Assembly (NCBI GenBank): GCA_008369845.1
Contig: MRSU01008419.1
Location: forward strand, 1 to 56,335
Length of the DNA stretch: 56,335 bases
Direction of reading: 5' to 3'
Origin: Trichomonas gallinae
Taxonomy: Eukaryota
A model generated the notes under the pieces. That model was not told the DNA's origin. It saw nothing but the letters and a program-made list of their open reading frames with translations, and did no database searches. Shown here piece by piece: positions 2,339-54,826 of the stretch (within the stretch, counting starts at the first letter, position 1; the number at the start of each line of letters is the position of its first letter). The position numbers were made by a program, and so were the translations under genes.

Positions 2339-5296
2339 TTAATTAGAATAATTTGTGATAACCGCCTGATTTGTCAAGTACTTGCAACTCTTGACAGCTT
2401 CCTTAATCAAGAAAGTGAACTTATCAATGACAGCTTGATTCTGAACAATACCATTTGAAATCATTCCGAAAACGAATTCAGCAATTTCACTGACACCGAA
2501 GCCGGCATAAGATCTGAGTGGGAGCAAAGTCAGCACCCAGTCATTGAAGATCTGTTCTGTCGGCATCGCAGCAAGGCACCTAATTACTGCGAATATTGTT
2601 TCGATGTCGCTAATATATCTATCTCTTTGTAACGATTCAATAAGCTCAGCCATGTACTGGAGAATATCAGCTTGGATTTCTTGCGGGCATTTTCCTGATT
2701 CTATTATTGCCAAAATAACAGTGCTTGCAGCGCGTTTAATGAACAAATCAGCATTCAATGATCGAATTGTTTGAACGATTTCATTCAAGTTTTGATCCAG
2801 CACATTTGTGTATTTAATTAGAATAGAGTAGAAGAAGAAACCATGCTCCAACTGCATTGGAATGAATTCTGTGTATGGGATGATATACTCAACAAGTACA
2901 GGGCGAATTGTAACAGCAGATCTTATCATCAAAACTAATCTAATGAGAAGATTTTCGCACTGTGTTGCCGGTTTGCATGTTGAGTTTTCTTTCTGCAGAT
3001 GCATTTGTAGTTCACCTGTGACTTTTTCTAGAATCTTCCTCAAGTCTTTGATAGTCTTATGCGATGGAGCAACGTATTTGTTGTATTCCACCAGTAGAAC
3101 CCTGAAAAGATCGCAGAGATTAATTGCTTTTTCAGTTGAGCAGTCTTCCATGTTGTTGAAGAAAGCAGAACGTGCAGCACCAAATAATGCTTTCATGCCT
3201 GTGAACTTTTCATAGTCTATGTGACGGGGGAGCATGCAGGCAACTCTGAATGCAGCCCTCGTGAGTCTGAATGACAAATCAGCCTCCATCCATTTAATTG
3301 CTATTTCGGCAACTGCGTCGACAATATCTGACAAACCAGTTGTATTGCTTAGAAGCACAAAAATTGTTTCCAATCCTTCATTGATCTCCTGTAAATCTGA
3401 TAACTCGTACAGCTTGTAAACTCCTTCATCCTCGCACAATACTTTGATGCCTTCAAAGTCTTTTTCGAATTCGTTGATGCTGACTTCTTTGTAAGGAATA
3501 TCCATCCTCGCTGCAGTCAAAATGTTTTCAATCAATACTTCGATGTTTTGCTGGACCATTTGGCTTATGTTGACCATGTACATGAGACGTCCATATGCGC
3601 TGTTTACGATATCTCGTTGTGATGAAGTCAAATTTGTTACATCAATTGAACTTATGAATGATATGATCATTTCATTGACACGTTCAAGATCATCACCAGA
3701 TAGGCAGTGTGTTAATGAGCATAGGACATCGAAAGCAGCGAAAACTTGTTCATGATCAGAATTTTCTTCCCCAAATGAAGAAATTACTGGATTGATAAGC
3801 TCATTTACGCCATCGCAGAATGGAATAAAGTTTTCTTTGAGACGTTTTGCAAGTGTGGAAATGATATTCAAGAGTTTAATTGGAAATTCATTAATGAACG
3901 AGGAAACAATTTCCAAAACAGCAGAGCACTGCTCAACAGATATGTGTGATGTCTTATCAATGAAAATACTCAAAGCTGAGATTTCAATATTTCTGCAGAA
4001 GTCTTCTGTTTCATTTGCTATAACATTATAGATGAGAGAAAAGATTTCATCATTGTCTGCTTGTATTGCTTCATCGATAACTTCAATTTCTGGATGATAT
4101 GCATTAAAAACATCAACAAATGCTTGAAATGCATCATATCTGATTAAAGTATTTTCACATACAAAGGAATTTTTGATTATTGGAATGATATCACTGCGAA
4201 TAAATGAATTAAATATATCATCGAAAGGTTTGATTGTTGCTTGTATTAACATAAACAACTGATGCTGTGCATTCGGATCCTGCTCTTCTGATTTTTCTTC
4301 GAAAATAGCTAAAATGCTGTTTCCGATTTCTGGATCATCAGAATATGTTTTAGAAATTCTTTTAATTGCGTCTCTTGCAGATAACATTGGAATATATGTG
4401 TTAATTTCGCCAAATTGGAACTCATCGATCTTGTAACACAGCATTTCAGTCAAAATCTGAATATATTCTAGTGCATTTCCATTGAACTCATTTGGAAAAC
4501 TATCTATAAATATCGTCATGATTTCCATTGCTATGCATTTGAGTTTATCTTCACCGTTGTTTATAATTTCAATTAAAGATTGGAAAATCGCTGGTGTTTG
4601 CTCGCCAAAGAATGTTGGATGCTCCTCGACGAAGGTCCAAAAGTCAGTGAGAACTTTAAATTCCACTGTTGGAACTAAAATTTGCGAAAAATCGATTAAT
4701 TGTTGAAAATTCGGATATAACTCTTGAGACTGAACGCAAGCATATAGTAATGAAAGAGCATATGTAAGAGACTTGTTAATTCCCAGTTGCGCAACTTCTA
4801 AAATCAAATTATTAATTGCTGGCACAAAAGCGGATGAATCGGCAATTTTTGATCTAAATATAAGTGATAGACAGTCAATAAGTGCTAATTTTGCTTCTGG
4901 CGAAACATTTGGAAAATATTGAAATATTTTGTCGAATACAAAACTAAATTGTCCTTCTGGTAAATAAATTCTTGTAAGACGGAATATGCATGTAGATAAT
5001 GGAATAAATAAGAGTGTATTTGTATTATTGACCAAAATTTCGAATAAACTGTCACCAAGTTGTTGAGGCAACTCCGAATTTTGCACCTGTAGCAATTGTT
5101 TTCCAAGTACTGATAACTCACGACCAAACAAAATCGCCGATTTCTGAGCAGATTCGTGCAAAGATTTGATATTCTCTATATTAAGCATGAAAAGCTGAAC
5201 AGGATTTTCCATGAGCATCTGATGGTGGACACCCAGCGTTTCAGCGTCACCAGAAAACAATCTATCAAGAAAAATTCGAAAATCCTGTAAATCCAT
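2339..5296 (-). CDS. Large HEAT/ARM-repeat protein, importin-beta (karyopherin)-like
   Basis: 985 aa, acidic, all-helical amphipathic pattern, HEAT-like motifs (e.g. NTLIRYDAFQAF). Size fits the importin-4/5 class. Family assigned by pattern only. Confidence 0.55.
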   Translation of the reverse strand: MDLQDFRIFLDRLFSGDAETLGVHHQMLMENPVQLFMLNIENIKSLHESAQKSAILFGRELSVLGKQLLQVQNSELPQQLGDSLFEILVNNTNTLLFIPLSTCIFRLTRIYLPEGQFSFVFDKIFQYFPNVSPEAKLALIDCLSLIFRSKIADSSAFVPAINNLILEVAQLGINKSLTYALSLLYACVQSQELYPNFQQLIDFSQILVPTVEFKVLTDFWTFVEEHPTFFGEQTPAIFQSLIEIINNGEDKLKCIAMEIMTIFIDSFPNEFNGNALEYIQILTEMLCYKIDEFQFGEINTYIPMLSARDAIKRISKTYSDDPEIGNSILAIFEEKSEEQDPNAQHQLFMLIQATIKPFDDIFNSFIRSDIIPIIKNSFVCENTLIRYDAFQAFVDVFNAYHPEIEVIDEAIQADNDEIFSLIYNVIANETEDFCRNIEISALSIFIDKTSHISVEQCSAVLEIVSSFINEFPIKLLNIISTLAKRLKENFIPFCDGVNELINPVISSFGEENSDHEQVFAAFDVLCSLTHCLSGDDLERVNEMIISFISSIDVTNLTSSQRDIVNSAYGRLMYMVNISQMVQQNIEVLIENILTAARMDIPYKEVSINEFEKDFEGIKVLCEDEGVYKLYELSDLQEINEGLETIFVLLSNTTGLSDIVDAVAEIAIKWMEADLSFRLTRAAFRVACMLPRHIDYEKFTGMKALFGAARSAFFNNMEDCSTEKAINLCDLFRVLLVEYNKYVAPSHKTIKDLRKILEKVTGELQMHLQKENSTCKPATQCENLLIRLVLMIRSAVTIRPVLVEYIIPYTEFIPMQLEHGFFFYSILIKYTNVLDQNLNEIVQTIRSLNADLFIKRAASTVILAIIESGKCPQEIQADILQYMAELIESLQRDRYISDIETIFAVIRCLAAMPTEQIFNDWVLTLLPLRSYAGFGVSEIAEFVFGMISNGIVQNQAVIDKFTFLIKEAVKSCKYLTNQAVITNYSN

Positions 5297-8980: not shown

Positions 8981-11854
8981 TCAAAGGAGACCAGATAAAA
9001 AAATCAGCCAAGTTTGATGTACTTTAGAAGCATCACGAAATCCCATTTTGATGATAGTATTTTGGATGATGATTTCAAACTTTAATGACACTGTACTCTT
9101 TTTATCTTTATCATCAATTGCAGTGAGATGAACGGTGTGTGTCCCTGGATTCAGTGTTTCACTGATATTAATTGTCATTTCCTGGTTTGTTAGCTGCTTG
9201 TTCTCGAGGTAGACAAGTGAATTAGATTTCGTTTTAAGATCATTTATATTGTGTGTAATATTGATGTAACATGGATAGTCAATGTCATTGATACTATACA
9301 AAATTGACAGTGTTTTGTCTTGGCCTTTGATGAATTTAGCAGGTTGTTTTGAAAATGAAGCATTTAATTTAGGAGGAGAATATGATAAATCAAAAGAAGA
9401 AGAAATTGTGGATGTTTTCTCTGTTTCATCTTTTGCAGTTAAATTATAAAGAATATTTCCTTCTTCCAATGTGTTGTTAATATTTGATATAGTAAAGTTA
9501 AATTCATGAGGATTTGTGGATGATATTTGAATCTCTTGGGTAGCATATGTGGTATTTTCAAGAAAGAGCGTTAGTGTGACTGATCCACTACCATCAGTGT
9601 CTATAACTGTGCCTTGGATTACTATTGGAGTGTCTATATTATTCGTGTAATTTGCTCTGTTGTTAGGAGACAATGAAATTGTTGGAGCGTTGTAAGAAAA
9701 ATTGAATTTAATTGGTTGTTCGCTATGAAGATATTCATCTGCCGCCCAAATAAAAATCATGTGTTGGCCTTCTGACAAATCTTGAGGAATATCAATAGTA
9801 AAGGATTGATCTGAAACCGAAACACTTGAATATTGAGATGTGTGTGTTTTGTAATCAGTAACACCACGAGAGTCGATTTCGTACTTGATAGTGACTTCGT
9901 TGGAGTCAATATCCTTTATGTCGTATGCAAATGTTAGCGATTTTGGATCTTTATTCTTTGTGAATGAATATGTACTCTGAAGACCTTTGAGAGTTAGCTC
10001 AGGGCTATTATACTCGAAATCGAAACTGACTTCTTTTGTTGTAAATTTGCCGCTATCATGGGTGGCTTTCACAGTGAATGTGTTTGTGCCATGGACAAGT
10101 TCGTTATTTTCGTTATTGTAATCGAACATGAAACCATAGATTGATGTAGAGTTAATTGGTATTGGAACTTCACTTATAATCCTATTATTCAAAATAAGGG
10201 AAACTGTGATTTTACCTCTGCCATCGGCATCGGAAACTGAACCAGATATTCGTATTTGATCATAGAAGTTTCTAAAAGATGGTTTGACTGGCCGAAGATT
10301 AGAAATAACTGGTGTATGGTGCTTGTAATAATATGTGTACGGAACAGTTTGTGATTGCTTATCATAATCATCCTTCAAATAGAAATAGTATGTATGATCA
10401 CCTTCATTTAAGCTGTGATTTACTGCTAGTGAAATTGTTTTTTCTGAAGGTTGGTTATAATCTGTAAGATCGAATTTAGATACTATTTTATATCCACTAT
10501 CGATGGCCATGTACAGTGGAGTTTCTCCATTGAGGTTAGCAAATTGAAATGTAAATGTGATGAATTCGTTATTTGTAAATGTCTTTTTTGTTGTGGGGCT
10601 TGTAAGTCTCAAAGTTGGAGTGTTATAGCTGTAATTAAAGCTAAGGTCATCTGATTCCTCTACAATTGAACCATGTTCGTGCCATTCAAAATATACTCTG
10701 ATTTTATGCTGCCCCTCCTCAAAATAGTATGGAAATGTGTAACTTAAATTAAAATCGTTTCCGTTCAAGAGTTGACCAGATCCTGTAGAATAATCATCAT
10801 CAATAGCAATCTTTGCTGTATATAGATCTTGTTTTTTGTTTTGTAAAGTTCCATAAATTGTAATGAATGCATCTTTTTTCATGAATAAATTGTCCTTGTT
10901 TATTGATATGTTTTCGATGATAAGTCGGCTTGGATAGATGATTATTGAGTATGTCATCGATTTGGGACCAATTCTTCCATTAGGGCCAATTACATAAAAA
11001 TATATCGGAAATATACTTGAATAGCTACCAGACTGATCATATTTTCGAATCTCAGACGCAAGAATTGTCAAATTTTTTCTGAATGTTTCCGCCGATTTTA
11101 ATGTAGTGAATTTTTCACTACGGTAAATCGTAAGATTTCTTTCTTCATCATATACAGCAATTTGATGAATACCTGGTTGAAAAGCGCCTTGAAAATTCCC
11201 AGGAATCTCAATATTTTCGTCCTCATAATATCTAGGTAAAAAAAAATGGAAATTATTAATAATATCATAATAAGGGATACTTGTTGTATCAATGTAGTGA
11301 GGAAGACGAAAATGAGGATGTACTAAAGATAATAGTTTATTATCTAAAGCATTTCTTTTGATACTTGATTTGGATGATTTCAAATCGAATTCAAGTTTTT
11401 TCCATAATATATTGTCATTTGCATCACATTTGGCTTTTGAATGAGGAGGAATACGTTTTCTTCTACAAAAGAATGAAACAAAATAATATTCATCATTTTG
11501 ATCAATATAAATTTCATCATCTGGAGAAATATTTATATTACTGCTTTGATTAATATTCGAAATAGAGATATGTGAATTGTTGTATGATAGAGAAAGAGAT
11601 GCTTTGGGGATATGTAGAAATGTTTTGATAGAAACTTGTACCTCATGATCATTAAGGTTATCTATATCATAAACATATGTTGAACGATTGAAATATGCTT
11701 TAAATTTGCAATTATGTAATATTTTATCTTCAATTTCTCGGAATTTTATCGAAATATCTTCATCACCGATGCTAAAAATTGTGTATGAACTAGTATTCTG
11801 TAGAGTTACATAGTTTCCAATACAAGAAAAAAGAGAAAAACAAATCGCTTGCAA
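8981..11854 (-). CDS. Bap-like surface protein with tandem Ig-like beta-sandwich repeats; no ATG at the 5' end
   Basis: Repeated units of about 105 aa (ISGSVSDADG...GTNTFTVKATHD; IQGTVIDTDG...GTHTVHLTAIDD) and a hydrophobic C-terminus (WLIFLSGLL). The ORF is open for 957 codons but the first ATG is codon 300 (10957). Confidence 0.75.
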   Translation of the reverse strand: MQAICFSLFSCIGNYVTLQNTSSYTIFSIGDEDISIKFREIEDKILHNCKFKAYFNRSTYVYDIDNLNDHEVQVSIKTFLHIPKASLSLSYNNSHISISNINQSSNINISPDDEIYIDQNDEYYFVSFFCRRKRIPPHSKAKCDANDNILWKKLEFDLKSSKSSIKRNALDNKLLSLVHPHFRLPHYIDTTSIPYYDIINNFHFFLPRYYEDENIEIPGNFQGAFQPGIHQIAVYDEERNLTIYRSEKFTTLKSAETFRKNLTILASEIRKYDQSGSYSSIFPIYFYVIGPNGRIGPKSMTYSIIIYPSRLIIENISINKDNLFMKKDAFITIYGTLQNKKQDLYTAKIAIDDDYSTGSGQLLNGNDFNLSYTFPYYFEEGQHKIRVYFEWHEHGSIVEESDDLSFNYSYNTPTLRLTSPTTKKTFTNNEFITFTFQFANLNGETPLYMAIDSGYKIVSKFDLTDYNQPSEKTISLAVNHSLNEGDHTYYFYLKDDYDKQSQTVPYTYYYKHHTPVISNLRPVKPSFRNFYDQIRISGSVSDADGRGKITVSLILNNRIISEVPIPINSTSIYGFMFDYNNENNELVHGTNTFTVKATHDSGKFTTKEVSFDFEYNSPELTLKGLQSTYSFTKNKDPKSLTFAYDIKDIDSNEVTIKYEIDSRGVTDYKTHTSQYSSVSVSDQSFTIDIPQDLSEGQHMIFIWAADEYLHSEQPIKFNFSYNAPTISLSPNNRANYTNNIDTPIVIQGTVIDTDGSGSVTLTLFLENTTYATQEIQISSTNPHEFNFTISNINNTLEEGNILYNLTAKDETEKTSTISSSFDLSYSPPKLNASFSKQPAKFIKGQDKTLSILYSINDIDYPCYINITHNINDLKTKSNSLVYLENKQLTNQEMTINISETLNPGTHTVHLTAIDDKDKKSTVSLKFEIIIQNTIIKMGFRDASKVHQTWLIFLSGLL

Positions 11855-12487
11855 AATGTCACTTTTTGATTTTTTACGCCAATAATATTATAATGAACTC
11901 TAATAATCAAGCACTATTTCGATGATTCTAATTGATGTACGTTTCCGACTTAAAAGTGACAGTTAACTCAATTTTTGTTAAATGAAAAGAAAATTATTGT
12001 CCTAATTAAAACAGCTAAAATTCGAAAAATTTAAAAAGTGTCACTTTTACATGCTCTTAATTTAAAAACTACGAATAATTATAATATTATCATTAATTAC
12101 CATATTTATCAATGAAATGTATTAAATTAAAACTCCAGAGAATAATTTAAATGAAGGAATTAAGACAAAATTGAACAACTTTTGTTTGTCATGTAAAGTG
12201 TCATATACTCTTAGAAATTATAAAATAAAAAAGAAGTCATAATATAACTTCCTTTATCTCGAAATATATACTGTGAATCTAAACAGCCTTTTATAATAGA
12301 GTATTATACCTTATTTTCGAATTTTTACATTTCTTCAGAAAAAATCGATAAAAATTAGGGTATTACACCTCCACAATAATTGAATGAATAAAAAATAGGG
12401 TCCATGTTTACAAATATTTTTTGTTTCTTTTTACATAAATATACAAAAAAACTATAAATAGTAAAAAATTTCGTTAATTTAAAAAAA

Positions 12488-17155: not shown

Positions 17156-18155
17156 TATATATATTTGTTTGTTATTTTTAATAAATATGTTTGCGAATTT
17201 ATGTAATTATCTCATTTATCAAATAACTCCTTTTAATAATGAAATCTCAATTTAAAAATTTTGCTCAAATCCAACAGAGTTCGTTGAAAATTGGCTATAT
17301 TACATAAATATACTCTCATGTATATATTCAAGCTAATGTCGTAATTTCTTATTAATCTTAAGATATTTAATTCATTCTAGTATTTATAAGACTGTATATG
17401 ATCTCAAACATTAATTCCAGTTCTAAGGATTTCGTATGATGCATCCCCTGTAGTCCCTTCTCGTAATAAAAAGTCAAATCTTGAAATTTCATTGCATATT
17501 ATTGAATACAAGACTACATGATTAGCAAAACATTTTAATGGGAATCAGAGTGTGTTAAGTCTACTAGCGATTTCACTGTTGTCGTTAATATAATTGAATG
17601 GATTATCACATAATAGATTGAATCTTAAAGATCCCATGCATTTAAACCTACTGGAGAAGAGAAATACAGCTGCGATTTCTGTAAGTGTCACAATTGTATG
17701 AGATGTCGATGAATGATTCAATTAAAACACAAATTTGAACCGTCGCAACACCCAATGCTTTGCATGAGTGCATATAATCTTCTCAAGCGATTTCAAAGTC
17801 TTAATCAAAAAGATTGAATTACAAATTTGTATTACATTCGCGATCTCAGGTTATTCGCTTCACACAATAACAGGACTAATGAAAATTCGCCTACGATTTC
17901 AAATTATCTACTAAAAACCATCAATAATCGCGAAAAATGAACTGAAAAAAATTAAATCGTCACGTCGATCATTTTCCCCTCAATTATAATCGTCACATTT
18001 TACACTATTGACTGATATTTGATGAAGAATAGTATTTTGATGATAAAAATGATTCTGTCACGCCCGTGAAAGTAAAGAATTTTTGGTGATTTGAGAACAG
18101 ATTGGTCGAAACTTTTTTTTTGGGAGAACTGAACACTTATTATTTTTTATAAGGT

Positions 18156-31789: not shown

Positions 31790-33165
31790 TTTTTTAATTA
31801 TTTAATCGTCAGCTTTCTAAAAAGTTGAAATACGGGTGAATAATACCATTTTAGCAAATAGTCTTCGCCATTCATTCAAAACTTATTCTGAGAGTATTCA
31901 ATTTATATAAATTTTGATTGAATAAACAAATGAATAATATTGGTTATATATCCGTATTAATGTGTTTTTTCATGCAAATGAAGTTAGCTAAAATGCCTCA
32001 CAAAAAATAAACCAATGAATTATCCTTCCATTTTGATGCTGTACTTGCATTCCTTAATAGCTAGCGTCGACAATTTCATAAAATATACTAATTAATTTTC
32101 GAACATTTTTAATCAAATCTTTATAACATCGCTATTTTTGGCAAAAAGATAAATATTGGGAGCTTACCAAGCCTAACAAGCCTATAATAACGAAATCAAG
32201 GCACAAATATTTGGCGTTAAAATTTATCGATTATTTAAAACCCTATAGTCATATACTAAATGACCTGTATAATTGCTTGGAAAATAACCTTTGAACTTCG
32301 GACATTTCATCTGATATCAAAATTTACTCCAAAAATCTTTTAAAAACATATAGATAAGTCCATGGAAGTCATATATCCATAAAGTACACCAATTTATATT
32401 ACGAACGATAATTTTTTTTTACAGAATTTTTTCTATTCAATTATTACTAAAGAATTAACGGGTGTGCTTCCACAATGATTAGGTTATATAAATAGGTGAT
32501 ATTTTAGGATATTTTTAGGTTGAGACAACAATGAATTTTGAATTGATTTTTATCGTACTTCAAAAATTTATAAAATTTAACTCAAATTTTTTATAACAAA
32601 ATAGTCAGATTAAAAAAATCAAAAAATAATATATGAAATAGGTTTTTATGATGGATTTGGTGATAATATTCCTTTATGATAAAATCTCATCGGCGTGGAT
32701 TTGGAACTTCATTGGATGCAATGTGTATAATCACCAATCTATATTTTTAGTGACAAATTGCAAAAAGACACCTTTTCTCCTCAATTTCTCCTTGACTTTC
32801 GGAGAACACGAAAACAACACTCATATATGTGAAATACTCACGAGAACATAACAACCCGCGAAATTATCCGTCCCATTCTCTGATGGGCGAATCTACAGGA
32901 TTCGAACGATTTGAAAATTATGACATGTATATTTCAAAATGTCATGTAAATAATAATGTTGTCAAAAATTATCATGTAAATTACATTTTGTCAAAAAATC
33001 AAATTACCAATATTTTGACTTTCAGATAGGCTCCTAAAATTGATAAGTGCTAAAATGTAACCCATATTTTGGTACACACAAGTTATTTTTCTTGATAGGC
33101 TCGAATTTTGAAAATAAAGTAATTAATTAACGAAAATGTAATATATATTAAGTTTTAAAGCTAAA

Positions 33166-37017: not shown

Positions 37018-37396
37018 ATCTTAACAAGCAACTGTCAACTTTTCAGGCTTAATTGTTGGCTCTTTATTTTTGCATCAATTGTTTTCAAAATAGTTATATT
37101 TTAAGATTATCTGAGCAACAACGAGATTCACGATATGTATTATATGAAGTCATATAAGAATAGAAATTACTCATAAGATAAAATGAAGCCTAGGCTAGAA
37201 ATATAAGAATCATGAATCAAATAAATATATTTTGATTAATATTGAGGAATCAAGATTAAAAATAATAAAATTTTGCAACTTTGTTTACGAAATAAAACAT
37301 TTACTAAAACAAAATCTTTGTTATTAGTCATAGGAGATGAGAGTATTAACTATTTTGTAATGAAACTAAAGAATTAAAAATAAAAATAGAAAAAAG

Positions 37397-37468
37397 CTCG
37401 GTCCCCGGGAATCGAACCCGGATCAAAAGAACGACAATCTTACATGATAACCATTACACTATGACCGA
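37397..37468 (-). tRNA. tRNA-Asp (GTC)
   Basis: TCGGTCA TA GTGTAATGGTTATCAT G TAAGA TTGTCGT TCTTT TGAT CCGGG TTCGATT CCCGG GGACCGA G forms a cloverleaf with G73 and a downstream oligo-T pol III terminator. Two stem mismatches. Confidence 0.88.
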
Positions 37469-47369: not shown

Positions 47370-47744
47370 ACTGTTGTTTTTAATTTTTTTTTTTGAAACT
47401 ATTTTGATATTACTCGCACTTAAAAACAGTATCTTTCACGAAATTGTTCATTCTAGTTAAACGTGCATTACGGAATTAGCTGAACCATTTTGACTCATAC
47501 TTGAAATATTATATATATAAGTTATATATAAGTATAAGTATATATAATAGGTATAAGTTTTTTAAAAAACCTAGATATTACACCTCTGTAGTTAATAGGA
47601 ACATGGCTTCTAATGATATATAAGGGATCTGCTGTTGATATTAAAAATTTGAATATTTGACTAATAAATTTTTATATGACAAAAATCAAATTTACATGAC
47701 ATATTGTCAAATTATTAATTGGAAAAATTCGTGACTTATTTTCG

Positions 47745-48632
47745 CGAGTTTCTGCCTTTATTATCATTGTCAGTAGCTACTTTATATGGATATATCGACC
47801 AAATTTGCCCAAATGCATTCTTAATTTTGAAGAAAACGAACAATTAAATACATCAATTTATATTGCGCAACTTATAGTATCTCAGCACAATCTCACACGC
47901 TTTTATACATCATATGCGATATGGGGAAAACAAATCGCGTTTCATTTTTCTAATTTAACTTATACAACAGTTTCAAGTCGAATTATATTGAATATTACAG
48001 GCAGAAGTTTGAGGTATTACATGCATGAGAAATGGAATATTTTGAATCGTGACTTACTTTACGGTAGTTATGTTTCTATAAAAGATTTCTTAGAAAATAC
48101 GAATTATTCATGGTATTTCAGGACGACAGACGATGTTTTAATCCATATTCCAAACTTCAAAAGGTTAATTAGCGATTTAGAGAATAAATATAATCCATTG
48201 AAAGATTTTGTGTTTAAAGGCCAATTATGTGGATCATATCTTCATGGAGGCCCAGGCTGGATAGTTTCGAGAGCATTAGCCGAAAAAATTGTACAAAAAT
48301 TGAATGATAAATATGATTCTCCTGATGATCTTGCTTTTTCGCAAATTGTTTCTGAATTTATGAAAAATCCAAGAGAATGGAACTCAGATAAGTTCGTTGC
48401 AACGCCATTACACAAATTTTCACTAAATATGATCGAAAATAACAGTTTTGATCAATTGCCTCCTTGTAGAACTCAAATATTTGCGAGAGTTAACGATATA
48501 GCAGTATGGCATGCTGGGGACCAAGATATGAGAGTTGTAACTCATGGAATCGATTTAATTGAAAAGCTTCCGAATTCTATTTACATTGGGAAATACTCTG
48601 ATTCTCATGCAGGATTTTGCCAACAAACATAA
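47745..48632 (+). CDS. GT31 (galactosyltransferase/fringe)-like type II membrane glycosyltransferase with a non-ATG 5' end
   Basis: WYFRTTDDVLI, YLHGGPGWIVSR and PDDLAF motifs. The frame is open upstream to a TGA at 47697 and encodes RVSAFIIIVSSYFIWIYRP (signal anchor). The first in-frame ATG is at 48021. The start coordinate given (CGA) is inferred. Confidence 0.75.
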   Translation, partial: RVSAFIIIVSSYFIWIYRPNLPKCILNFEENEQLNTSIYIAQLIVSQHNLTRFYTSYAIWGKQIAFHFSNLTYTTVSSRIILNITGRSLRYYMHEKWNILNRDLLYGSYVSIKDFLENTNYSWYFRTTDDVLIHIPNFKRLISDLENKYNPLKDFVFKGQLCGSYLHGGPGWIVSRALAEKIVQKLNDKYDSPDDLAFSQIVSEFMKNPREWNSDKFVATPLHKFSLNMIENNSFDQLPPCRTQIFARVNDIAVWHAGDQDMRVVTHGIDLIEKLPNSIYIGKYSDSHAGFCQQT

Positions 48633-48997
48633 CATAAATATATGTATATTATATATGATATTCTTCCACTAATCGCAACTTTCGATTTAACATCATAAAC
48701 TATTTCAATAATTACAATAAAAAACGTGGGTTGAACGAGTAATTTTCGAGATTAATATCGGTTTTTATATCCATATTTGACAGTATTTTCGTACTCTCCT
48801 AGGTGTAAGATTAATAAATTCTCTAATATATGCTTAATTGTTGGAAAAACCAAATCAATTCAATATGTTCAAATAATAAGATTGATGAATTTTACGAAAT
48901 ATATTGACTTAGGAATACAGCAATAAGATATATAATCAATATGGTATATAAAAAAGCAGTGACTTTTTGTTAGTTCTACGTCGAGAAAATTATTATG

Positions 48998-49390
48998 AGC
49001 AAAAGACTGATACAACAAAACAGCTTTGATTTGGGCTTCAACTAATGGTGATCATGTGGTTGTCAAACTACTTCTCACATTTCTTGGAATAGATGTCAAT
49101 TCAAAAGACTATTTATACAAGACAGCTTTGATTTATGCTACAGATAAAGGATATACAGAGGTTGTCAAGGTACTGTACATGGAATAAATGCCAACATAAA
49201 AAACTATTTAAAATCAAACAGCTTCAGTATATGATAATCCTGAATTTGTCAAGGTACTTATCACAGTACCTGGAATAGATGTTAACGCAAAAGTAGATTA
49301 CAACGATACAGCTTTGATAGGAGCTCCAGAAGAAGGTCATCATGAAGTTGTCAAGCTTCTTCTCAAAGTTCCTGGAATAGAGAAAAATTA
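48998..49390 (+). pseudogene. Ankyrin-repeat pseudogene
   Basis: KD*YNKTALIWASTNGDHVVVKLLLTFLGIDVNSKDYLYKTALIYATDKGYTEVVKVL, then a frameshift or deletion, then VKVLITVPGIDVNAK..DTALIGAPEEGHHEVVKLLLKVPGI. Confidence 0.85.
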
Positions 49391-51659: not shown

Positions 51660-53165
51660 TTATACATTATATAAGTTGGACATATTTTCAAGTATAGGTG
51701 ACATATATTCGCCATCTGCCTGAATATGCAGTCCTTCCAAGTAATTGATGCATCCGCTAATGAAACAATTCTCATTACAATGCATTAAATCATAGTTTAC
51801 CATGTTTTTAGCGTCAATGTAATGAATTTGAGCAGCTTCTGCAAGAATTTTTGTTCTTTGATCGCAGTCCATGTTAAAATGAGAGAATTCTACGAGAATA
51901 CTCCCAGAATTCATGAAGTAAGCCAGTTCAGAGCCATGATATTTAATTGCAAATAAAATTTTTGATCTTGATATATTATAAAGAATTCGAGGAATCATTT
52001 GTATTGAATAATTTATAACTTGTAACTCATATGATGGGAATTTTTCTTTAATAGCATTGATGACACTTGTTGAATTTGATTGACTCATAATAGGATCATG
52101 AAGAAAAGTTATGACATTCTCAGTCCGTGATAGATTAAAGTGTCTTTTGAAGTTACTATTTGGAATGTACAAAGAATCAGCAGAATATGGAGAAATATTA
52201 TTTTTTTGACTTTTGTCGAATTTGGACAATCCAATAATAGTATTATCATACAAAACATTATGCGCATTTATTCGCGTCGAATAGCTGCCGTTTACAAAGA
52301 TCTTCATGAAATAATCATTTTCAGCTGAGTTTTCGACTTCAATAAACGTGTGTTGTAGCTTGTTTGATGGATCATAGGCATTGAACATTAAATCTATGGG
52401 CATATATACGTCAATTAAACGATTTAAAAACGAATTTCTAGAATCATGAACACCAACTGTCCCAAATAGAACCAAATTATCCTTAACATAGTCAATAGAA
52501 GTTTGCATTGGGTTATTTTGCTGCAAAACTTGAGTGCTATCGATTGCTCTATACTTGGCGAACGAATTATTGATTCTTGCTCCTAATGATAAAAATTGTT
52601 CAGGGAATTTGTAGTTGCATGGATAATTAATGATGAGATTAGGCCCAATTGTTGATATATTGCGTGCTAAACAGTGCTGAATTGGATCTCCAAAGCATTT
52701 TAATTGAGTATATTTTGAATTTTCTTTAAAATTGGTAAGATGTAATTTAACGACATATTTATATCGAGTTGCCTGCTGATCTTTAAAATTGTTCGATGAT
52801 TTAGCACAAAATAAAAGTCCAGGATTTTCTTGAACGAATAAAAGCGGGAAATTTATTGCTAATGTATTATTATCGAAGAAATATGCATTTGTGATAGATT
52901 TTTGAGGGCAAAACAATTCACTATGAAATTGAATCCCTAAGAATGAAAAATACGAAGCAATTTTCCATGGATTATATGATGATATGGTTTTGTGGAACGA
53001 TATTTGTATAGTATCTCCGTTTGTCGTAACATCTCGAATTTGATTGCAAATATTTTGTGGATCTTCAAGAAAATCGTTCATATTCTTGAAGAATACTTTA
53101 TAAATGAAGTATCCTGCAGATATGCTGTATATTATACTGCAGAGGCCGAGTAATATTGAAACCCG
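51660..53165 (-). CDS. GT61 (DUF563)-like type II membrane glycosyltransferase with a non-ATG 5' end
   Basis: C-terminal SRSKILFAIKYHGSELAYFMNSGSILVEF resembles the GT61 HGAGL..F...VIE motif. The TM VSILLGLCSIIYSISAGYFIY lies upstream of the first ATG (53081), with an in-frame TAA at 53225. The start coordinate given (CGG) is inferred. Confidence 0.65.
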   Translation of the reverse strand, partial: RVSILLGLCSIIYSISAGYFIYKVFFKNMNDFLEDPQNICNQIRDVTTNGDTIQISFHKTISSYNPWKIASYFSFLGIQFHSELFCPQKSITNAYFFDNNTLAINFPLLFVQENPGLLFCAKSSNNFKDQQATRYKYVVKLHLTNFKENSKYTQLKCFGDPIQHCLARNISTIGPNLIINYPCNYKFPEQFLSLGARINNSFAKYRAIDSTQVLQQNNPMQTSIDYVKDNLVLFGTVGVHDSRNSFLNRLIDVYMPIDLMFNAYDPSNKLQHTFIEVENSAENDYFMKIFVNGSYSTRINAHNVLYDNTIIGLSKFDKSQKNNISPYSADSLYIPNSNFKRHFNLSRTENVITFLHDPIMSQSNSTSVINAIKEKFPSYELQVINYSIQMIPRILYNISRSKILFAIKYHGSELAYFMNSGSILVEFSHFNMDCDQRTKILAEAAQIHYIDAKNMVNYDLMHCNENCFISGCINYLEGLHIQADGEYMSPILENMSNLYNV

Positions 53166-53542
53166 CGAAAAAATCTGAATTTTTAGTGTCACTTTTTGAA
53201 ATATGAAAAAATTATCATGATTTTATTTTGGATGTAACTCATCACACAATCAATAATTTCCAATACAAGTCAAACCATCAGATACTATAACATTTATATA
53301 TTAGATTAATCTATATTTCATTAACCGGAAAAAGATCATGATTGATATTTTATCAATTTTAATATTTGTCTAATATTTTCGATTTTTTGACACTTTACAT
53401 GACATTTTTTTAAAAAAATCGTTTTTCTAAAAATTATACATGTTTGTTGCAACTTGCTTGTTGAATAAGTGTTTCGTGCTACATAAATATTTAAATAGAT
53501 TTAATTGTTTTACAATACAAACAAAATATATAAAATAAAATA

Positions 53543-54826
53543 TTATAATGTTAGGCGAGCAGAGTGATAAGTTCGCGGCCTGTAAGTTGGGATCGAATTT
53601 GGCATCCTTGGGGTTCTTTTGAGAACTTCATCTTTAAATGAATTCCTTGTTACTGAATTGTAGTCGCGCGCTTCATCTAAGCACTTGGTTCTGAATGACT
53701 TCCATAGATGCTTTCTGAGATTCTCTATATAATCGTTAACAACAGTTTGATCATCACGCTGATCTAAAATGTTTTTCAAAATTTCCTTTTGTACTACCAT
53801 TGGAATCAGAGAGAAGAAGTCACGATAATCAAGCAACATGCCTTTCACCCTTCGCACAACTGATGCTTTGAATTCATATAATTTAGAAGTATATACTTCA
53901 GGGAGAGCAAAAATGGTATTTTCACCATAAGTAGCGGCAACAAGAGTTGATTCACCTTCTGGAAGCTCAAAATCAAGTTCGCCAATATGTAATTTCTCTG
54001 GTTCGACGGATATTTTTGTAAAATCGATATTTCTATGGACTTTAATAAGTCCAGACTTAATCAAAATGAATCCATTGTGAATCGGATTTGAATTTTCGAT
54101 TAATGTGCCTTCTTCGATCTCGAAATCCTTGAGAGACTCTGCAACATACTCCAATATATCCGGATAATCGAACAAAGGCTCGAGTTTTGTGATATTTAAA
54201 ATTAATGCTGTTCTTTCTTGAACAATTAAGTTGTTAATCGTTTCTAAAACGAATCTGAATGTATATGGATCAACCCTGAGTACTTCAGTTTCGCCAACAG
54301 CAATGCAAAATTGTTTTCGATAAGAATTTGTGAGCATTTCTTCTCTTCCGACATCTTCTGAAACAGTAGCTCTTCTAACAATGCGAAAATGTTGCTTTCT
54401 AAGAACAGGATTGTGAATTCTGCGAATATATTTGCTTGATAATATTTCATCTGGATCTGTAGGCTCTTTATCGCATTTTTCGACGAGAATGACATTACCT
54501 GAGTATATTAAATACCATCCATCATTCAAATCATCAAGCTTATAAACTAATTCGCCGTCTTTGTAATTTTCGAGTTGAATTGCTTTGCAAATATCTTTCT
54601 GTACTCTTTCATTCTTCGCAATTGACGTGAAAACAGGCCATTCTTTGAGGTATGTGTATATAGCTTCGACATTTAAGAGAGAGCGTTGGTTTGGTGGCGT
54701 TTGAAGAGATCTGTAGACAGCGGACATTGCAAACCTAGGAGTCAGTGCATAAGCAGGCAATCTAGGTACGACAATGATTCTCTGGCGGCGAGCTGTTTTA
54801 GGAGAAACCCGCGCAGAGTAAGACAT
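53543..54826 (-). CDS. Cyclic nucleotide-binding domain protein (two CNB-like domains)
   Basis: LENYKDGELVYKLDDLNDGWYLIYSGNV and GFILIKSGLIKV CNB beta-roll motifs. ATG at 54826. Confidence 0.8.
   Translation of the reverse strand: MSYSARVSPKTARRQRIIVVPRLPAYALTPRFAMSAVYRSLQTPPNQRSLLNVEAIYTYLKEWPVFTSIAKNERVQKDICKAIQLENYKDGELVYKLDDLNDGWYLIYSGNVILVEKCDKEPTDPDEILSSKYIRRIHNPVLRKQHFRIVRRATVSEDVGREEMLTNSYRKQFCIAVGETEVLRVDPYTFRFVLETINNLIVQERTALILNITKLEPLFDYPDILEYVAESLKDFEIEEGTLIENSNPIHNGFILIKSGLIKVHRNIDFTKISVEPEKLHIGELDFELPEGESTLVAATYGENTIFALPEVYTSKLYEFKASVVRRVKGMLLDYRDFFSLIPMVVQKEILKNILDQRDDQTVVNDYIENLRKHLWKSFRTKCLDEARDYNSVTRNSFKDEVLKRTPRMPNSIPTYRPRTYHSARLTL

Follow-up and report, generated by a model that had tools for sequence, protein, structure and literature searches.

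A gene for a GT31-fold glycosyltransferase that has no early ATG is real and is conserved in this state in a relative. It lies in the 56,335-nucleotide stretch of DNA analysed here (hereafter the window; 34.5% GC), where its frame runs on the plus strand from 47700 to 48632. The frame is closed directly upstream by a TGA (47697-47699) and the first ATG after this stop is at 48021 (codon 108), in agreement with the coordinates of the initial annotation, which had proposed a non-AUG start. Because the stretch preceding this ATG has the properties of coding sequence and the relative likewise lacks an early ATG, translation probably begins at some non-AUG codon. Among the specific explanations, we favour near-cognate initiation at an AUU codon assisted by a downstream element, a reading suggested by sequence comparisons and held at slightly less than even confidence.

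The GT31-fold protein and its N-terminus

The description of the product as GT31-like holds by structure model, profile and Foldseek search. The model (pLDDT 91.9) had CHSY3/CHPF, B3GNT2, C1GalT1 and Fringe as its top Foldseek matches (E 4e-9 to 8e-7, TM ~0.5), and a profile of 31 family members matched B3GLCT (7.9e-9), C1GalT1, CHSY3 and Manic Fringe. The curated Pfam threshold was not reached, PF02434 Fringe scoring 18.3 bits with a cut-off of 21. The protein carries the motifs RTTDDV (DxD-type) and HGGPGW (GGxG), with D130, G168, G169 and G171 invariant in 31 sequences; the metal-binding T-D-D motif of DxD type is encoded at 48126..48134 (plus strand) and its last Asp is invariant in 31/31 aligned sequences. 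A GT-A fold, a DxD-type motif, a GGxG motif and an N-terminal anchor are held in common with the GT31 glycosyltransferases B3GLCT, C1GalT1, Fringe, B3GNT2 and CHSY3, but the structural matches have just 10-15% identity and the subfamily found here is parabasalid-specific. T. vaginalis has annotated members of the same family, and promoter words of T. vaginalis type are present in the window. Together with its GC content, a DUF3447/ankyrin gene and the absence of canonical intron motifs, these features mark the window as parabasalid DNA of trichomonad type.

No ATG lies ahead of the anchor and the first catalytic strand. The first ATG corresponds to residue 93 of the structure model, and the anchor helix, the strand E34-43, R52 and W60 all precede it. 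This strand aligns with the first strand of B3GLCT, and R52 and W60 (numbered from CGA) are nearly invariant in the family. The signal anchor recognised initially (...DLFSRVSAFIIIVSSYFIWIYRPNLP...) was confirmed: the hydrophobic stretch AFIIIVSSYFIWIY (47754..47795, plus strand) forms a helix in the model. An N-terminal hydrophobic 17-mer was found in 84/100 homologues of at least 290 aa, and Met comes first in 94/100. Searching metagenomes with the family alignment retrieved five loci, four of them parabasalid-like with both an ATG and an anchor; the fifth was distant and was not used. No loci were found with this alignment in viral and prokaryote collections. The product is a predicted type II membrane glycosyltransferase with an anchor-like stretch. 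Four out-of-frame ATGs occur before 48021, so a scanning ribosome would hardly reach that codon.

Two observations were made on homologues. Comparing P0147 with P0160, the T. vaginalis G3 protein TVAG_110220 is annotated with 229 aa and no anchor, and a Logan protein identical to it over these 229 aa has 325 aa in total, the 96 additional residues including an anchor. Locus L070 contains a 337-codon frame (4103-5113, minus strand) whose first Met is at 68 and in which a sequence resembling a signal peptide begins at an ATA/TTG position.

The relative was found in a bird-metagenome DNA run (X1), long pieces of which are ~89-97% identical to the window. A single X1 contig (depth 23) showed 62 differences and no gap over 47653-48634 (982 bases; ~94% identity). 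The initial annotation had allowed that orthologues or raw reads might show an ATG at the start position; the relative's contig has none there and likewise none before the anchor. The missing ATG is therefore no assembly error, and this cause was excluded. A run of 65 bases (47721-47785), spanning promoter words as well as codons, is unchanged in the relative, which is expected at ~1% for this divergence. Just upstream, four changes fall within 8 bases: three at 47717-47720 and one that creates a new in-frame stop at 47712 and thereby places the start of translation after 47714. Of 27 differences in the stretch compared here, 21 were located, and the other 6 probably fall between 47653 and 47712 or at its end. 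Two RNA runs from the same study as X1 contained nothing mapping to these genes, which says nothing about their expression.

The substitution pattern, an estimate from one relative, one contig and modest counts, says that the GT31-fold gene has apparently stayed under selection while lacking an ATG. Between 47745 and 48020, 7 synonymous and 10 non-synonymous changes were counted on 59 and 217 sites (dN/dS 0.39-0.50); by itself this pre-ATG part did not differ significantly from neutrality (p 0.054-0.13). After ATG 48021 there were 22 non-synonymous and about 13 synonymous changes, the latter number obtained by subtraction and not by direct counting (dN/dS 0.42-0.57). The parts before and after the ATG showed no difference in synonymous excess (Fisher p 1.0), and comparison of the whole gene with neutrality gave p about 0.002-0.027, varying with the assumed transition bias. 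The probability of no stop arising under neutrality was about 0.05. The change found in the R52 codon of the relative is synonymous.

These data bear on the possibility of a young or leaky pseudogene, which would have lost its ATG before the lineages split and would make little or no full protein; the word shared between gene starts (see below) would then be a promoter-type DNA site or due to chance. Pseudogenes that are transcribed from normal promoters are numerous in trichomonad genomes according to the accessible sections of PMC4223856, the ATT discussed below is one change from ATG, and 3/23 window genes lack an early ATG. The short, anchorless annotation of the T. vaginalis G3 member (229 aa against 325 aa for the Logan protein) and a dN/dS near 0.5, i.e. 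weak constraint, point the same way. Against this, 62 substitutions since the split have left the frame open and free of gaps, with a synonymous excess and with both lineages lacking the ATG, and the catalytic motifs are intact. Neither neutral divergence nor stops or frameshifts were seen, the dN/dS of 0.39-0.57 coming from one relative and modest counts. The transcribed pseudogenes and the readthrough genes described for T. vaginalis in the available parts of PMC4223856 and 10.64898/2026.08.31.748405 resemble the present case in having intact promoter words and a frame without a usable start, but the GT31-fold frame has remained open and constrained across ~6% divergence without an ATG. We consider a pseudogene unlikely; simple decay, like a canonical intron or readthrough, is disfavoured.

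Candidate start codons and a word shared by three gene starts

Three of the 23 genes listed in the window have no ATG inside 45 codons of the upstream stop: the GT31-fold gene, a GT61-like gene and an Ig-domain-like frame (8981..11887, minus strand), which we take to be Bap-like. The last has 968 codons, its first Met at 311 and a signal-peptide-like start; it contains an in-frame ATT (11845) 12 bases after a match to HCAHW, the initiator pattern, and is without the CGCG word described below. A fourth long ATG-less frame is the antisense of the GPI gene and was not counted.

The GT61-like frame (51660-53222, minus strand) has its first ATG at 53081 (codon 48), directly after a hydrophobic anchor, and is ATG-free across three upstream stops. 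It had been credited with the same defect as the GT31-fold gene. This stands insofar as no ATG precedes the anchor; the defect is milder, since ATG 53081 comes right after the anchor and no out-of-frame ATG occurs before it. The gene could start at ATG 53081 as an anchorless protein. Its family label has ESM Atlas features as its single source (0.92, 184/256 features shared, all 30 matches GT61); Pfam gave no GT61 match for it, and a word search for homologues found none. A 620-base piece of this gene showed 22 differences and no gap in the relative. At 51950 one contig from the relative departs from the gene with at least 255 unrelated letters, which may represent an insertion, a paralogue or a broken copy.

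Other features of the window were recorded alongside. It contains a DUF3447/ankyrin gene (Pfam) and a tRNA-Asp (GTC) at 37396-37468 on the minus strand. The region ~48990-49390 is ankyrin-repeat-like, contains short frames and is covered by run X1 at very high depth, indicating a multi-copy, probably broken repeat gene, and broken short frames at ~17400-17940 resemble a decayed gene. No ORF follows TTTTCGCG at 17934 (minus) or TTTCGCGGGTTG at 32862 (minus). The latter belongs to a GC-richer non-coding stretch (~32740-32900, minus) located after TTTACATGACA words; it has no ORF and no match in Rfam, and is possibly a non-coding RNA gene.

Both ATG-less glycosyltransferase genes have an in-frame AAAA-ATT-C 13-16 bases ahead of the shared word (47727, 53180), which the initial annotation had missed. 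In the GT31-fold gene it occupies 47723..47730 (plus strand), and its ATT (47727-47729), unchanged in the relative, is the putative start of a gene extending over 47727..48632 with its first ATG (48021) within the catalytic domain. In the GT61-like gene, AAAA-ATT is at 53178..53184 (minus strand), just after AAAAGTGAC (53196-53188), and ATT 53180-53178 would start a gene covering 51660..53180. Of 1100 overlapping, arbitrary promoter points in 20 genes, 4.8% have an in-frame AAAA-ATT within 10 codons, so that a site of this kind in two of two genes has a probability of ~0.2%, a figure found post hoc. AAA at positions -3 to -1 was seen in only 4/20 ATG genes.

Words resembling T. vaginalis promoter motifs surround both candidate starts. 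The initiator-like TCAAA (47707..47711, plus strand), a match to the low-information motif HCAHW, would leave an 18-base leader before the ATT. The GT31 ATT is preceded by matches to HCAHW at distances of 18 and 26 bases, the GT61 ATT at 7, 17 and 24 bases. These distances are within or near the range observed in ATG genes, 13/20 of which have a match 3-30 bases ahead of the start, the gene for a cNMP-binding-domain protein being without one. The GTGAC at 47731..47735 (plus strand) is the core of the T. vaginalis M2 motif (AAAGTGAC) given in the accessible text of PMC4223856. The recurring word TTTACATGACA (47691..47701, plus strand) includes the closing TGA and has six exact copies in the window (12197, 20062, 32950, 41553, 47691 and 53394), found upstream of genes together with TGTCA/TGACA half sites. 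It is not among the T. vaginalis motifs given in the available parts of the literature on those promoters. Many other X1 contigs map onto 47645-47718, the region of this word. The positions originally assigned to TTTACATGACA, GTGAC and TTTTCGCGAGTTTC (47691, 47731 and 47739-47752) were all correct.

The word TTTTCGCGAGTTTC (47739..47752, plus strand) reads F-S-R-V-S and is unchanged in the relative. Its counterpart in the GT61-like gene, TTTTCGCGGGTTTC (53158..53171, minus strand), also reads F-S-R-V-S, and the reported 13/14 identity in the same frame was confirmed. With up to one mismatch, TTTTCGCGAGTTTC has two matches in the window, one of them the query itself, where 0.04 are expected; two or more were obtained in 0/100 shuffles. 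Of the three in-frame words richest in GC that are shared within 253 pairs of gene 5' ends, one belongs to the GT31/GT61 pair and the other two to pairs involving the cNMP gene. The start of that gene (54804..54826, minus strand), overlooked initially, has an ordinary ATG at 54826 and CGCGGGTTTC at +14 in the same phase (M-S-Y-S-A-R-V-S), the core word being placed at 54813, 14 bases into the gene. The core, CGCGRGTTTC, has four copies in the window against 0.04 expected. Three of the four are at gene starts in one phase, beginning at +17 of ATT 47727, +14 of ATT 53180 and +14 of the cNMP ATG; the fourth (6436) is internal and in another phase. The single phase at three gene starts also counts against a pseudogene. 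As neighbours, the three genes may be non-independent. Their 5' regions, however, align only over short words, and a duplicated 5' module common to them was therefore rejected.

Outside the window, no copy of the core word was found in 48.9 kb from four other parabasalid-like loci, where the homologues begin with ATG. In viral and prokaryote collections, scans for the motif yielded 156 matches spread over 154 loci, the level of chance; five had a long in-frame ORF and none was ATG-less. The supplement of PMC7370421 has no copy of the core word.

Proposed initiation and competing readings

The simplest reading places the core word downstream of the start codon, as position and phase in the three genes suggest. 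Transcription would begin at the initiator-like TCAAA (47707), and a scanning ribosome with Met-tRNAi would accept AUU 47727 in its A-rich context. The GT31-fold protein is predicted to begin M-R-D-L-F-S-R-V-S, followed by the anchor, and the GT61-like gene would start likewise at ATT 53180. CGCGRGTTTC at +14 to +17 would act as a downstream element and not as the start, which is the least certain step. Its role might be to delay the ribosome at the start codon or to set the position where transcription begins, and the adjoining ordinary ATG gene would use it as well. Protein output would be below the AUG level, as follows for near-cognate starts. In support of AUU initiation, an in-frame codon with one mismatch, in a favourable context and with no AUG alternative, precedes a coding region that is conserved. 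Against it, the patterns in ATT and spacing come from three adjacent genes of a single window and were noticed post hoc.

A shared hairpin was rejected as the basis of the element, with fold z-scores of -1.31, 0.35 and -0.34 in one set and 0.92, -1.95 and -0.96 in the other. For a stable downstream hairpin of the PTEN-beta type, one of the three downstream folds is near significance (z -1.95; the others 0.92 and -0.96), and in the fold of the GT31-fold gene the AUU itself would sit within a 10-pair stem. Since no hairpin is shared, the word could act through a bound factor, as a TISU-like transcription element or through the peptide S/A-R-V-S. A wider reading is that CGCGRGTTTC is a dedicated signal that defines the start without reliance on AUG in one group of genes, chiefly of the secretory pathway, either by an upstream AUU at fixed distance or, in the extreme case, by the arginine codon itself; this is conceivable but doubtful.

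The initial annotation had put the start at or near the CGR or TCG codon. Transcription would then begin just after GTGAC and translation within the word, by an undescribed mechanism. GTGAC lies downstream of the ATT in the GT31-fold gene; if transcription starts after GTGAC, the ATT is outside the mRNA and the CGR/TCG codons return as candidates. The word is the longest shared feature (13/14), in frame and unchanged in the relative; TTATTTT ahead of it resembles a degenerate initiator at the usual distance, one homologue (P0091, 1/150) starts M-R-V-S, and the ATG of the cNMP gene overlaps a GTGAT word and could be upstream of that gene's start site. However, CGA, CGG, TCG and GCG need two to three changes to become AUG, and a one-change ATT in AAAA context is at hand upstream in both genes. 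In addition, no HCAHW match occurs within 32 bases of the GT31 CGA, the same core stands 14 bases after a normal ATG in the neighbouring gene, and the accessible portion of PMC5666671 holds no precedent. A start within the word is thus improbable.

The word could alternatively be an M3-like upstream core-promoter element, with transcription starting at CCTTT 47755 or TCATT 47764 and translation at an ATT, ATC or ATA inside the anchor. The M3 consensus attributed to Smith et al. 2011 is reportedly one base shorter than CGCGRGTTTC, so that a single inserted base would separate the two. CCTTT (M5) at 47755 starts 12 bases past the word's first C, TCATT comes next at 47764, and TCAAT follows the GT61 copy. 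Against this, a scan for this consensus found no match in the GT31 or GT61 5' regions, the GT31 anchor would shrink to ~12 residues, and both the fixed phase and the copy lying behind an ATG would be left without explanation. We regard such an element as highly improbable.

Finally, the start could be supplied by readthrough of TGA 47697 from an upstream ATG, by an intron or by RNA editing. An in-frame ATG missed initially (47676..47678, plus strand) lies seven codons ahead of this TGA and is the basis of the readthrough version, for which readthrough claimed in Trichomonas (10.64898/2026.08.31.748405, in its available part) also speaks; introns in 5' regions exist according to the accessible text of PMC12316389. 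Yet the relative has a second stop at 47712, and the GT61-like frame contains no ATG over a span of three upstream stops. For the spliced 5' end considered in the initial annotation no sign was found: type A/B intron motifs, with donor and fused branch/acceptor (patterns from the available part of PMC13548475), had no match in the window, no branch-site word was found near the GT31-fold or GT61-like gene, and where the GT31 word has AG, the GT61 word has GG. Together these routes are given very little probability.

Relation to known systems and implications

In the available text of PMC5666671, two eukaryotic proteins start at AUU: TEAD1 does so solely from this codon, and PTEN-beta does so with a hairpin 18 bases downstream. 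The same source gives Kozak's hairpin at 14 bases downstream and a precedent for A-rich context, so that mammalian AUU starts have known elements at 14-18 bases downstream. The present genes would have in common with TEAD1 and PTEN-beta an AUU start, context dependence and a GC-rich element, here 14-17 bases downstream. They differ in having no stable shared hairpin, an element that is a word common to unrelated genes, a parabasalid origin and a start that we infer. TISU, an element that could act in both transcription and translation of short-leader mRNAs, has an invariant ATG (accessible sections of PMC2518114). The likeness lies in a word near the start of short-leader mRNAs with a possible dual role in transcription and translation, but CGCGRGTTTC contains no ATG and lies 14-17 bases after the proposed start.

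The T. vaginalis promoter motifs described in the accessible parts of PMC4223856, PMC13515687, PMC4450334 and PMC7370421 are Inr (HCAHW), M2, M3, M4 (AAAAT[T/G]) and M5 (CCTTT), and AAAAT[T/G] is termed translation-associated in the first of these. Words like M2, M4, M5 and Inr all occur around both starts; CGCGRGTTTC, in contrast, fits none of the motifs and keeps reading phase. By their definitions the word is not TISU or M3, and the arrangement works like near-cognate initiation. Trichomonads are held to use AUG only because of a single construct test in T. vaginalis, in which no alternative start was found (as given in the available part of PMC4223856). No account of non-AUG initiation in trichomonads turned up in a literature search that did not extend to most subscription papers.

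Should conserved membrane glycosyltransferases start at AUU alone, automatic annotation would strip them of their anchors and wrongly class them as fragments or pseudogenes, and the secretory proteome of the parasite would be undercounted. If CGCGRGTTTC is a dedicated start signal, many trichomonad proteins annotated without signal anchors would be mis-started. A word that follows AUU and AUG starts alike at a constant distance would represent a new element for short-leader initiation.
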